24,776 bases of DNA from a virus (lineage: Duplodnaviria > Heunggongvirae > Uroviricota > Caudoviricetes), in IMG/VR virus record IMGVR_UViG_2778261457_000006, positions 1 through 24,776 of that record; one strand, 5' to 3'. Below the pieces are notes generated by a model. That model was not told the DNA's origin. It did no database searches and saw only the letters and a list, made by a program, of their open reading frames with translations. Position 1 is the stretch's first letter. The number at the start of each line of letters is the position of its first letter. Positions 2,706-23,768 of this stretch are shown here, piece after piece. The position numbers were made by a program, and so were the translations under genes.

Positions 2706-2781
2706 GCTGGTTTAGCTCCAATGGTAGAGCAGTCGCCTTGTAAGCGAATGGGTAGCGGTTCAAGTCCGTTAACCAGCACCA
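2706..2781 (+). tRNA. tRNA-Thr (anticodon TGT)
   Basis: Hand-folded cloverleaf: perfect 7-bp acceptor gctggtt/aaccagc, D-stem gctc/gagc with GG in the D-loop, anticodon loop ctTGTaa (U33, A37), T-arm agcgg-ttcaagt-ccgtt, discriminator a and encoded CCA 2779-2781. Confidence 0.75.
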
Positions 2782-3023: not shown

Positions 3024-3347
3024 ATGAAGATGCCAGAAAAACATGACCTGTTAGCCGCCATTCTCGCGGCAAAGGAACAAGGCATCGGGGCAATCCTTGC
3101 GTTTGCAATGGCGTACCTTCGCGGCAGATATAATGGCGGTGCGTTTACAAAAACAGTAATCGACGCAACGATGTGCGCCATTATCGCCTGGTTCATTCGT
3201 GACCTTCTCGACTTCGCCGGACTAAGTAGCAATCTCGCTTATATAACGAGCGTGTTCATCGGCTACATCGGTACTGACTCGATTGGTTCGCTTATCAAAC
3301 GCTTCGCTGCTAAAAAAGCCGGAGTAGAAGATGGTGGAAATCAATAA
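3024..3347 (+). CDS. S: holin S (107 aa) with dual-start motif Met1-Lys2-Met3
   Basis: Translation [34 protein letters not shown]... matches recalled lambda S107/S105. ATG AAG ATG dual start with an upstream cccc..gggg hairpin (sdi-like) at about 3003-3016. Confidence 0.93.
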
Positions 3348-3807
3348 TCAACGTAAGGCGTTCCTCGATATGCTGGCGTGGTCAGAGGGAACTGATAATG
3401 GACGGCAGAAAACCAGAAATCATGGTTATGACGTCATTGTAGGCGGAGAGCTATTCACTGATTACTCCGATCACCCTCGCAAACTTGTCACGCTAAACCC
3501 AAAACTCAAATCAACAGCTGCAGGTCGTTACCAGCTTCTTTCCCGTTGGTGGGATGCCTACCGCAAGCAGCTTGGCCTGAAAGACTTCTCTCCCAAAAGC
3601 CAGGACGCTGTTGCGCTGCAGCAGATTAAGGAGCGTGGCGCTTTACCGATGATTGATCGTGGTGATATTCGTCAGGCTATCGACCGTTGCAGCAATATCT
3701 GGGCTTCATTGCCGGGAGCTGGTTATGGTCAGTTCGAGCATAAGGCCGACAGTCTGATTTCAAAATTCAAAGAAGCAGGCGGAACGGTCAGAGAGATTGA
3801 GGTATGA
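3331..3807 (+). CDS. R: endolysin R (lytic transglycosylase, 158 aa)
   Basis: Translation [49 protein letters not shown]... matches recalled lambda R. Overlaps the S end as in lambda. Confidence 0.93.
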
Positions 3808-4262
3808 GCAGAGTAACCGCGATTATCTCCGCTCTGGTTATCTGCATCATCGTTTGCCTGTCATGGGCTGTTAATCATTACCGTGATAATGCCATCGCCT
3901 ACAAAGAACAGCGTGATAAAAAAGTCAGTGAGCTGAAGCAGGCGACCGCCACCATCTCTGACATGCAGCAGCGTCAGCGTGATGTTGCAGAACTTGACGC
4001 CAGATACACAAAGGAGCTTGCTGATGCTAACGCGACTATCGAAAGTCTCCGTGCTGATGTTTCTGCTGGTCGTAAGCGCCTGCAAGTCGCCGCCACCTGT
4101 GCAAAGTCAACGACCGGAGCCAGCGGCATGGGCGATGGAGAAAGCCCAAGACTTACAGCAGATGCTGAACTCAATTATTACCGTCTCCGAAGTGGAATCG
4201 ACAGGATAACCGCGCAGGTTAACTACTTGCAGGAATACATCAGGACTCAGTGCCTGAAATAA
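3804..4262 (+). CDS. Rz: spanin inner-membrane subunit Rz (152 aa)
   Basis: N-terminus [31 protein letters not shown]... matches recalled lambda Rz (N-terminal TM helix, then coiled coil). Central and C-terminal parts diverge from lambda. Confidence 0.88.
4024..4209 (+). CDS. Rz1: spanin outer-membrane lipoprotein Rz1 (about 61 aa), embedded in Rz in the +1 frame
   Basis: +1-frame ORF inside Rz. AAGGAG (4011-4016) 7 nt before ATG 4024. Signal peptide [20 protein letters not shown] with lipobox VSAC, then Pro-rich mature region [14 protein letters not shown]. The ORF track's 3979 start is probably too far upstream. Confidence 0.7.
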
Positions 4263-4294
4263 TTTTTTTTGCAAATCACAAAGTCCATTTAATG

Positions 4295-4318
4295 AGCCTC
4301 GCGATGCGGGGCTTTTTT
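4295..4318 (+). terminator. rho-independent terminator downstream of Rz
   Basis: Stem agcctcg/cggggct (7 bp with one G-U), 5-nt loop, then TTTTTT 4313-4318. Confidence 0.6.
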
Positions 4319-4465
4319 ATGTCCGCAGTAAACGCGCTTCACACGCGCGACTTATGAACACAGAGCCTTTCAGGATGACCCTTGAGGATGCCGGTTTGGT
4401 AATCGGTGCCTTTCTGTGGGCCGGAATCCTGTGTGACAAGGTTCATCACTAAAAGGTAATCACCG

Positions 4466-5008
4466 ATGAATTATCCAACTATCGTTGACGGCATTGATTT
4501 CAAAGAACTGGTTTTTATTACCAACAATGACCCTGTCACCGATTCATTTATGGTGGCGAAAGCATTTCGTAAGCGACATGACAACGTTGTGCGTGATGTA
4601 GAAAGAACTATCGCTGCTTGTCCTGAAGAGTTTGATACAAAACTCAATTTTGAGGTTTGCTATAAAAACAATGAGTTACAGAATGGTAAGCCACAAAAAT
4701 TCTATCGGCTACGTAAGGATGGGTTGATGCTTTTGGTTATGTCCTACACCAAAAAAGAAGCAATGCGTATCAAAATTGCTTACATCAACGCATTCAACTG
4801 GATGTACGCCATGCTTCAGGTTGGTCATCGTCAATTTGAAGAAGAGAGAAATGCCGTAATGCTGGAGTACATGAAAGAGAAGGATGTTGCCAGCATGTCA
4901 GGCCGCCTGCTTAATCGCTGGGGAAAAATTAAGAAGCCTCAGCTACTGGCGAGAATTGAACGCCTTGAACAGCACGGGCAAACCGTAATCCCCGGACTCA
5001 CCAATTAA
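4466..5008 (+). CDS. rha: Rha-family phage regulatory protein (180 aa)
   Basis: N-terminal ...ELVFITNNDPVTDSFMVAKAFRKRHDNVVRDVE... is the recalled Rha-family signature (F-KRHDNVLRDI). Confidence 0.75.
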   Translation: MNYPTIVDGIDFKELVFITNNDPVTDSFMVAKAFRKRHDNVVRDVERTIAACPEEFDTKLNFEVCYKNNELQNGKPQKFYRLRKDGLMLLVMSYTKKEAMRIKIAYINAFNWMYAMLQVGHRQFEEERNAVMLEYMKEKDVASMSGRLLNRWGKIKKPQLLARIERLEQHGQTVIPGLTN

Positions 5009-5166
5009 CGGCAGTACCACGAAACAACCCAAGCCAGTAAGTGGGGAAATAACACTGGCAGCCACTGAAAGATGAACCTCCAGCCTTATGGCAAAAAAGA
5101 TTCTTTGTGGTGGCGGACTGATGGAAAGACCTCCTAATCAAGCAACCACTCTACAGGGTCATAATT

Positions 5167-5538
5167 ATGAACGACCAGCAAATCGAAAAAGAAATCGTTG
5201 AGAAAGGCAAAACGGCGCCGCGCGTTACGCCAGACCATATCGAAGGCATTATTGCTCAGGAGGCATATTTCACAGCAGAGGATGGTGCCTTTGGCAAAGC
5301 CATAAAAGCGAAACATACTGGCGGAGAGGTAAACTACCAGCCGCACGAATCACTTTCTCTGCTGACGTTCTGCGTCCTGGTGCTGCGCAACGGCTTCACC
5401 GTCACCGGAGAGAGTGCCTGTGCAAGTCCGGAAAATTTTGATGCAGAAATTGGTCGGAAGATTGCCCGGCAGAATGCTGTAAACAAAATCTGGATGCTCG
5501 AAGGTTACTTGCTGAAGCAGAAGCTAAGCGAACAGTAG
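5167..5538 (+). CDS. Gp49-like protein (phage N4 gp49 / Sf6 gp66 family, 123 aa), function unknown
   Basis: Translation contains ...LLTFCVLVLRNGFTVTGESACASPENFDAEIGRKIARQNAVNKIWMLEGYLLKQ..., recalled as characteristic of this family, which often sits upstream of terS. Confidence 0.6.
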   Translation: MNDQQIEKEIVEKGKTAPRVTPDHIEGIIAQEAYFTAEDGAFGKAIKAKHTGGEVNYQPHESLSLLTFCVLVLRNGFTVTGESACASPENFDAEIGRKIARQNAVNKIWMLEGYLLKQKLSEQ

Positions 5539-5641
5539 TTATTACAAAAGCCATTCCCTACAGAGTGGCTTTGATAATGGCTTATACCCTACACGGGATA
5601 ACTTAACTGATATCCCTTTTAACGGATAAACGGAGCCAACA

Positions 5642-5884
5642 ATGGCAGAGATTATTCCCATGACTGAAGAACAGAAATTCAAGTTAGAAATTTACCGACT
5701 GCTATCTAAGAACAATTCAGCGGCAGAGGAAGCTTTTGCATTCATTGGTGCTGACCAGCTGAAACTGGAATTGTTCAAGTTGCACTACAACGATGGTGGT
5801 GCAAATCCAGACTTCACATCTCGCACTATCGAAGCGGTGCGTAAATCGAAGGAAGCGTTAGACCTGTTCACTACCGGAGCATGA
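5642..5884 (+). CDS. hypothetical protein (80 aa)
   Basis: ORF with GGAG about 7 nt upstream of the ATG; no family recognised. Confidence 0.45.
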   Translation: MAEIIPMTEEQKFKLEIYRLLSKNNSAAEEAFAFIGADQLKLELFKLHYNDGGANPDFTSRTIEAVRKSKEALDLFTTGA

Positions 5885-5913: not shown

Positions 5914-6408
5914 ATGAATATGGCAGCACCAAAGGGCAACCGATTTTGGGAGGCCCGCAGTAGTCATGGGCGAAACCCTAAATTCGAATCGCCTGAGGCG
6001 CTGTGGGCTGCTTGTTGTGAATACTTCGAGTGGGTGGAAACTAACCCGCTATGGGAGATGAAGGCGTTCTCGTATCAGGGTGAAGTGATACAAGAGCCTA
6101 TCGCCAAGATGCGAGCGATGACCATCACCGGACTCACTCTGTTCATTGATGTGACGCTTGAAACATGGCGCACATATCGCCTGCGAGAAGATTTATCTGA
6201 AGTCGTTACGCGAGCAGAGCAGGTCATCTACGACCAGAAATTCTCTGGCGCAGCCGCTGACCTTCTCAACGCTAATATCATCGCCCGTGATTTGGGCCTC
6301 AAAGAGCAGTCGCAAGTTGAAGACGTGACACCTGATAAGGGAGATCGCGATAAGCGACGCTCTCGTATCAAGGAGCTATTCAACCGTGGAACTGGACGCG
6401 ATTCTTGA
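5914..6408 (+). CDS. terminase small subunit (P22 gp3-like, 164 aa; alternative start at 5920)
   Basis: Translation ...[46 protein letters not shown]... matches recalled P22 gp3. 3' end overlaps terL. Confidence 0.88.
6188..6209 (+). other. candidate P22-type pac site (AAGATTTATCTGAAGTCGTTAC) inside terS
   Basis: The sequence gaagatttatctgaagtcgttacgcg lies near codon 92 of terS and matches my recollection of the P22 pac site, which lies inside gene 3. Recalled from memory, not verified. Confidence 0.5.
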
Positions 6409-23693: not shown

Positions 23694-23768
23694 TGGTGTC
23701 CCCTGCAGGAATCGAACCTGCAATTAGCCCTTAGGAGGGGCTCGTTATATCCATTTAACTAAGAGGAC
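23694..23768 (-). tRNA. argW: tRNA-Arg (anticodon CCT), host argW
   Basis: Reverse complement GTCCTCTTAGTTAAATGGATATAACGAGCCCCTCCTAAGGGCTAATTGCAGGTTCGATTCCTGCAGGGGACACCA folds as a canonical cloverleaf with anticodon loop CTCCTAA. Matches recalled E. coli argW. Confidence 0.9.

Follow-up and report, generated by a model that had tools for sequence, protein, structure and literature searches.

What is encoded between the lysis and packaging genes of a P22-like prophage, and do the genes found there act together? We addressed this question for a 24,776-nucleotide stretch of viral DNA (IMG/VR record IMGVR_UViG_2778261457_000006), which is referred to below as the window and represents an IME10-like member of the P22-like phages (Lederbergvirus; ∼95% identity across 72% of the window length). 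In the late operon of this P22-like (IME10-like) Escherichia coli prophage, three open reading frames (ORFs) are read on the plus strand between the spanin gene Rz and terS:

4466-5008, plus strand: Rha, 180 amino acids (aa), pI 9.3; cargo position 1
5167-5538, plus strand: Gp49-like protein (Acb4-family, PF13876, 'Gp49/Sf6 gene 66'), 123 aa; cargo position 2
5642-5884, plus strand: DUF2560 protein (P22 Orf80, Sf6 gp67, HK620 HkbM), 80 aa, pI 5.1

An earlier reading of the letters alone (the sequence-only reading) had placed these three genes between Rz and terS. All three are indeed found there with family scores far beyond chance, and matching E. coli prophages carry the same three names in the RefSeq annotation. 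That reading had also treated the three as one accessory cluster. We arrive at a different picture, in which the interval is probably a row of three independent positions rather than one system. These positions are held by a Rha regulator, by a predicted sponge of the Acb4 family that would counteract the cyclic oligonucleotide-based antiphage signalling system (CBASS), and by the core gene DUF2560.

This picture is based on a survey of 80 viral contigs with a terS 95-100% identical to that of the window, 72 of which span the whole Rz-terS interval. Among these 72 loci the interval measures 576-2598 bp (median 1645 bp), and its occupants differ from prophage to prophage. This is in agreement with the view of the sequence-only reading that the position is a variable cargo slot, and it is not the picture of three core packaging proteins at a locus without variability. 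Rha-family genes are present in 24 of the 72 loci, Acb4 genes in 15, and a 64-aa hkbN-like gene in 32. DUF2560, which had been counted among the cargo, is present in 72 of 72 and has to be taken out of that class. Positions 1 and 2 are cargo and position 3 (DUF2560) is core, and the triad of the window is just one of many combinations. Of 5426 complete E. coli genomes, 2809 contain pieces of the interval and 17 contain the full triad.

Further occupants of the slot are KilA-N proteins (some with an ORF11CD3 tail), a longer pRha protein, Tad2-like (PF11195), DUF551 and T5orf172 proteins, a trypsin-like protease, a Dec-like decoration protein and several unknowns. In P22 and BTP1, orf25 and pid are found at the Acb4 position, between the non-coding block CE1 (described below) and orf80. 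The pid moron locus of P22 (orf25-pid), which lies between rha and orf80, thus shares the cargo position of the window Acb4 gene, but pid has a weak promoter of its own, is read leftward and acts on the dgo operon of the host, whereas the window cargo is a rightward Acb4 gene. Another known parallel is the anti-signalling hot spot of N4-like phages (Ab09 gp57-61), a fixed slot that collects Acb4, Tad2 and related inhibitors. The P22-like slot resembles this hot spot in that Acb4 and Tad2-like genes occur there in different phages and, in phage Huey, next to each other in the same slot. Unlike the Ab09 hot spot, it belongs to another phage group, has other neighbours, lies in a late operon and also takes up regulators and a decoration protein.

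Two other kinds of occupant were observed along the way. Between DUF2560 and terS, locus L073 and 14 others encode a 134-aa protein that gives a match to the N-terminal part of PHROG 3018 ('head decoration protein') and is presumably like Dec of phage L. A third cargo position, between DUF2560 and terS, can therefore carry a structural accessory gene. In addition, some Tad2-like (PF11195) slot proteins have an extra N-terminal domain of ∼75 aa (L060, ORF 222-743; L001, ORF 1935-2435, Huey_CDS0064). This domain also occurs as a stand-alone 95-aa protein (L027, slot ORF 694-981), and in PHROG 9467 it is linked to a C-terminus like that of Acb4. The reasoning from fusions that led to Sequestin makes it a candidate sponge domain.

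The universal gene of the interval, DUF2560, matches PF10834 with 126.3 bits (cut-off 25) and lies, as expected for this family, upstream of terS in a P22-like phage. P22 Orf80, HK620 HkbM and Sf6 gp67 belong to the same family, occupy the same position and are 77-79% identical to the window protein. Within the 72 loci two clades were distinguished, with 75-100% and 43% identity. The gene was found in 171 phage records, essentially all from P22-like phages of Salmonella, Escherichia, Shigella, Klebsiella and Proteus, and a stub of 28 codons survives in HK97-like siphoviruses. With 74 clusters at 90% identity the family is a small one; among 1.84 billion representative proteins, ∼72 relatives were recovered by profile search, all of them stand-alone proteins of ∼80 aa. 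Two longer matches were rejected as frameshift or chimeric products. DUF2560 is a core gene of P22-like phages.

What this core gene contributes is less readily read. The AlphaFold2 model of the protein has four helices (predicted local distance difference test score, pLDDT, 80), and neither its structural neighbours nor a profile search of the PDB gave an informative relative or functional lead. PHROG assigns the family no function, and a literature search on the function of DUF2560/Orf80 found none. Tentatively, a role of DUF2560 may be tied to the P22-type head/packaging module. We favour this possibility over a role as a counter-defence protein because the gene is universal and confined to the P22-type module. 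The competing idea, that DUF2560 is no accessory of assembly or packaging but a counter-defence protein not described so far, appears rather unlikely to us. It would suit a small, acidic, helical protein encoded in a slot that gathers the sponges Acb4 and Tad2-like, and a gene with no structural or virion role on record. Furthermore, a P22 mutant named 'delta orf25-orf80' still makes plaques and lysogens, so that DUF2560 is apparently dispensable in the laboratory. Typical counter-defence cargo is patchy, however, whereas DUF2560 is present in every locus. It is restricted to P22-like phages, and siphoviral lambdoids that possess CE1 and Acb4 retain it as the 28-aa stub only. It also lacks fusion partners and any PADLOC or PHROG function; none of the three proteins of the interval matched a PADLOC defence-system model. 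A relation to Sequestin (PF21825) was examined and rejected, since no Pfam match was obtained at E 0.1 or better and the hhalign probability against Sequestins A-C was 0.04.

The positions of the interval are separated by conserved non-coding DNA. By plotting the number of loci aligned at each window position, we delimited the following blocks:

4263-4465, plus strand: Rz-rha spacer, holding a terminator-like hairpin and the equivalent of the P22F stretch
5000-5133, no strand: CE1, a sharp-ended conserved block of 134 bp between cargo positions 1 and 2
5134-5545, plus strand: Acb4 cassette, DNA that is present or absent en bloc between CE1 and the DUF2560 leader
5546-5641, plus strand: CE2 (DUF2560 leader), with two hairpins and the Shine-Dalgarno sequence GGAG at 5632-5635

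CE1 is present in ∼88% of the 80 loci at 94% identity, regardless of the flanking genes, and its core (5026-5133) is almost invariant. Its nucleotide diversity (π) is 0.011, whereas the third codon positions of terS and of DUF2560 reach 0.093 and 0.117 in these loci; neighbouring synonymous sites are thus about ten times as diverse as CE1. The block was also found in 163 phage records at 90-99% identity, including those of P22, ST64T, Sf6, BTP1, epsilon34 and some siphoviral lambdoids. Together with the 3' end of rha (4943-5146, plus strand) it aligns with the published 204-nt P22 RNA 'P22G' (PMC13397905), which was described in 2026 as a read pile-up only, with its function reported as unknown (PMC13397905). 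The conservation over 163 phages was measured in the present analysis. STnc6030 of BTP1 was considered as a CE1/Rha RNA and rejected, being located elsewhere.

Searches for the basis of this conservation were mostly negative. Folding z-scores of CE1 (+0.57 and -0.54) were not significant for a structured RNA, and its variation was too low for a covariation test. CE1 had no match in Rfam; the sole match in the region was asX2 (E 0.057), below threshold. Most loci keep open a minus-strand ORF that fills CE1 (MSFHQ...AVNW, 43-48 aa). Several polymorphisms lie at its third codon positions, but the same sites are also third positions of a plus-strand frame. This ORF is an unlikely gene: the window has lost its ATG (C at 5131), frameshifts interrupt it in P22, phiKp_30 and others, and it has neither conserved upstream signals nor a PHROG match. 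Plus-strand ORFs from 5072 and 5088 were also rejected, one for a radical polymorphism at 5082 and the other for its variable continuation. CE1 is thus without convincing coding potential and at present unexplained; it could be an element that functions as RNA or DNA, or else a recombination linker.

The joints of the Acb4 cassette are also sharp. Alignment coverage drops from 0.88 to 0.19 at 5125-5150 and recovers at 5525-5550, and in 'empty' sites CE1 is joined directly to the DUF2560 leader. In this leader, CE2 (π 0.016), hairpin 1 is formed by 7 bp between 5547-5553 and 5566-5572. Its stem occurs in at least four alleles with changes on both sides, and pairing was complete (7/7) in 83% of 30 distinct contexts, compared with 3.7% for shuffled arms. 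Hairpin 2 (5595-5600 with 5611-5616, followed by TTTT) lies in a block that is present or absent across loci. It is conceivable, but in our judgement unlikely, that the scaffold of CE1, hairpin leader and DUF2560 is itself a functional module, which would combine a late regulatory RNA with a small counter-defence or packaging-control protein. The alternative is a mere recombination linker next to a dispensable ORF.

Upstream of position 1, the spacer contains a terminator-like hairpin directly behind Rz (4294-4314; 9 bp, six of them G-C, followed by TTTTAT), which was found in a terminator scan and for which the mEpX1 annotation has a terminator at the same place. The stretch just upstream of rha (4354-4460) is the counterpart of the reported P22 RNA 'P22F' (PMC13397905). 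A 32-aa ORF at 4354-4452 was rejected as a gene, since it has no family match and relatives do not preserve it as an ORF.

The occupant of position 2 could be assigned to a characterised family. The sequence-only reading held that the Gp49-like family has no known function, a statement that is outdated: PF13876 (Phage_gp49_66) was equated with the Acb4 sponge family by two groups in 2024-25. The window protein matches this Pfam family with 119.5 bits (cut-off 27) over profile positions 1-82 of 82. In a PDB sequence search its single meaningful match was 'anti-CBASS 4 (Acb4)' (9e4w, E 0.006), and a profile of close homologues raised this match to E 6e-5.

The structural comparison points in the same direction. 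An AlphaFold2 monomer model built from 27 homologues (pLDDT 82.7) has helices at residues 3-12 and 22-27, a strand at 29-36, an insert, strands at 66-73 and 78-84, and a helix at 93-122. This is the fold expected of Acb4, with N-terminal helices, three antiparallel strands and C-terminal helices, and it resembles the dsRBD, a domain that binds double-stranded RNA. When the model was compared with the PDB by Foldseek, the top 13 matches were without exception 9e4w chains (probability 0.95-0.99); next came dsRBDs, which the Acb4 authors likewise describe as fold neighbours of Acb4. The segment ENFDAEIGR (aa 89-97) aligns with ENFNDEIGR (60-68) of the Acb4 protein from Bacillus phage SPO1. The stacking and adenine-pocket residues F48, F62 and I66 of SPO1 Acb4 are retained as F77, F91 and I95, and N63, a backbone contact, is replaced by D. 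The window protein is 79% identical to Sf6 gp66, 50% to N4 gp49 and 26% to SPO1 Acb4.

Published work on relatives gives this assignment its functional content. SPO1 Acb4, a protein of 96 aa, forms a pinwheel tetramer that binds four molecules of 3'3'-cyclic GMP-AMP (cGAMP); it also binds other CBASS signals, though not cyclic di-GMP, and protects a T4 mutant against a CBASS operon. Each of the eight PF13876 homologues assayed binds 3'3'-cGAMP, and those from phages of Gram-negative hosts also bind cyclic di-AMP (cAA). Sf6 gene 66 and many near-identical enterobacterial proteins are included in the homologue table of the Acb4 paper, and N4 gp49, the other Pfam namesake, was reported to be a functional Acb4 that triggers the Panoptes system. 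The Gp49-like protein of the window is an Acb4-family member and is predicted to act as a cyclic-dinucleotide sponge.

The window protein shares with SPO1 Acb4 the Pfam family, the order of the fold, ENFxxEIGR and the three residues F48/F62/I66, and both are small and phage-encoded. It differs in having an extra N-terminal helix, a hypervariable insert of 24 residues, replaced guanine and phosphate contacts and the motif RKIAR, and in being encoded in a late operon of a temperate phage. The insert (aa 41-64, nt 5287-5358) lies between β1 and β2. Both its sequence and its length vary between flanks (N-terminus and core) that are almost invariant, and one homologue lacks this segment altogether. 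In the model, the insert takes the place of the β1-β2 turn that bears K36 in SPO1 Acb4, which suggests that it may border the base pocket and tune specificity.

Several observations weigh against the sponge assignment. The Foldseek template modelling (TM) scores to 9e4w were modest (0.42-0.51), because a monomer model was compared with a chain taken from a tetramer. When the SPO1 contact set (K36, F48, E49, V56, Y57, F62, N63, I66, T70 and K81) was compared, only three of the ∼10 ligand-contact residues were conserved. K36, E49, V56, Y57, T70 and K81 are replaced by L65, T78, C85, A86, I99 and M110, respectively; of these, K36 and E49 are the guanine-specific residues of SPO1 Acb4, and Y57, T70 and K81 contact phosphates. 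Since the SPO1 contacts are mostly replaced, ligand specificity is not readable from the sequence, and homologues from Gram-negative hosts are known to differ in specificity. The eight assayed homologues may not include a member of this enterobacterial clade. Finally, RKIAR (aa 97-101, nt 5455-5469) opens the long C-terminal helix at the position of the dsRBD KR motif. The motif [KR]-x(1,3)-[KR] is needed by RNA-binding domains of the dsRBD fold and is lost in SPO1 Acb4.

Another explanation is that the enterobacterial Gp49-like clade is not a sponge but binds double-stranded or structured RNA (for instance, hiding phage RNA that triggers defence) or some other ligand. A dsRBD-like fold, a motif that fits the RNA-binding consensus and is retained in some phage dsRBDs, and the loss of guanine-specific and phosphate-contact residues would all be compatible with such a role. 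We nevertheless regard it as quite improbable, because the eight diverse PF13876 members that were assayed are without exception cGAMP binders, because N4 gp49, with 50% identity and the same Gram-negative type core, was reported as functional Acb4, and because the adenine-pocket residues and ENFxxEIGR are conserved.

At position 1, Rha combines a Phage_pRha domain with a swappable partner domain:

aa 25-113, nt 4538-4804, plus strand: Phage_pRha DNA-binding domain (PF09669, 82.8 bits, cut-off 29.9)
aa 125-176, nt 4838-4993, plus strand: ORF11CD3 domain (91.1 bits)

The protein also matches NCBIfam TIGR02681 (87.8 bits, cut-off 45.95) and PHROG 518, and with a pRha domain above the cut-offs it is placed in the Rha family. 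The GC content of its gene (0.43) is below that of the surroundings (∼0.50). The Rha-family genes of the related loci fall into four alleles with 91, 59, 47 and 36% identity. The ORF11CD3-coding 3' part of rha (window 4838-5008) is found in two to three times as many loci as the 5' part, and KilA-N proteins that occupy the same slot bear the same C-terminal ORF11CD3 domain, which indicates domain swapping in place. Both Phage_pRha and ORF11CD3 form part of the 'Bro network' of phage DNA-binding proteins that swap domains. Rha is most likely a dispensable two-domain DNA-binding regulator of this network.

The sequence-only reading had linked Rha-family proteins to growth effects in particular hosts, and the literature agrees with this: P22 orf201 and phi80 Rha impair lytic growth if the host has no integration host factor (IHF), a phenotype that is known for these two only. 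P22 rha (orf201) likewise encodes a pRha domain and lies at the same place behind the lysis genes in the late operon, but its product measures 201 aa against 180 aa for the window Rha, which is one of at least four diverged alleles. The IHF-dependent phenotype belongs to P22 orf201 and phi80 Rha, and the window allele is likened to them by family membership. No solved structural relative of Rha was found in the PDB, and a literature search for Rha as a defence trigger or inhibitor found nothing.

Could the three genes nevertheless form one unit, in which Rha regulates a two-protein counter-defence or exclusion module made of the Gp49-like protein and DUF2560? Their adjacency, shared strand and shared order, as seen in phiKp_30 and in the 17 E. 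coli genomes with the full triad, would be expected of such a unit. We consider it very improbable, since the genes assort independently rather than being inherited together. Rha and Acb4 co-occur in 6 of the 72 loci compared with 5 expected under independence, which does not support the idea of a single cluster. Moreover, each gene has its own recombination joints, Rha and Acb4 travel without DUF2560 in a Stx2a-converting phage (94% DNA identity), and Sf6 has Acb4 and DUF2560 without Rha.

Extremely improbable, finally, is an anti-CRISPR function of the Gp49-like protein, as suggested by the annotation 'anti-CRISPR protein' of the homologues Huey_CDS0066 and those in Mimir124 and FKP10, because this label stems from automated annotation, no solved anti-CRISPR is among the PDB sequence or fold matches, and the Huey record labels its Tad2-like protein identically, suggesting a generic anti-defence label. 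The label was seen on Acb4-family or Tad2-like proteins in PQ850609.1 (Huey), PQ310662.1 and PP974338.1, where it looks like a generic anti-defence transfer.

For the row of three independent positions we propose the following course of events. The conserved non-coding blocks would hold the positions apart, and cargo would be exchanged at these blocks by recombination. Upon induction or infection, late transcription would pass the terminator-like hairpin at 4294-4314, assumedly under a Q-type antiterminator as in Sf6 and mEpX1, and would then yield the three genes ahead of the structural genes. The Acb4-like protein most likely forms a homotetramer, as its family membership suggests, and by analogy this tetramer would sequester CBASS cyclic dinucleotides of the cGAMP, cyclic UMP-AMP (cUA) or cAA type. 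With the signal sequestered, the CBASS effector would stay off and phage assembly could be completed. Expression from the late operon is a point against this scheme, being late for a counter-defence gene. Rha would act as a dispensable regulator at position 1, its P22 and phi80 relatives blocking lytic growth without host IHF. DUF2560 would be a small, acidic, helical adaptor made late, with ties to the P22-type head/packaging module and not to any one host defence. Because Panoptes is able to sense sponges, the patchy distribution of Acb4 (15 of 72 loci) fits a balance of costs and benefits.

The cargo nature of the interval (pid, Dec), the Acb4 family and sponge-collecting hot spots have been described before. 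For several features we found no description elsewhere: the slot in quantitative terms, the presence of DUF2560 in every locus, how strongly CE1 is conserved, the pairing-preserving hairpin, and the hypervariable insert and KR-type motif of the Acb4-like protein. One consequence is a corrected annotation, in that an anti-CBASS sponge is very probably what thousands of E. coli, Shigella, Salmonella and Klebsiella prophages carry under the name 'Gp49 family protein'. This bears on the prediction of temperate phages that overcome signalling-based immunity or set off systems that sense sponges, Panoptes among them. In P22-like phages the Rz-terS interval is also a collecting point for signal sponges (Acb4, Tad2-like), and its uncharacterised occupants therefore make up a short list of testable candidates.

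The interval is flanked by the following genes, with terL and a portal gene further downstream:

3024-3347, plus strand: lambda-type holin, upstream flank
3331-3807, plus strand: endolysin, upstream flank
3804-4262, plus strand: Rz spanin (Phage_lysis, 139 bits), with Rz1 embedded in Rz
5914-6408, plus strand: terS (GP3_package, 113.5 bits)

The late leader contains genes for tRNA-Asn and tRNA-Thr (2626-2700 and 2706-2781, plus strand), as is also the case in Sf6. Near the far end of the window lies a tRNA-Arg(CCT) gene (23694-23768, minus strand), which is probably the prophage attachment site.

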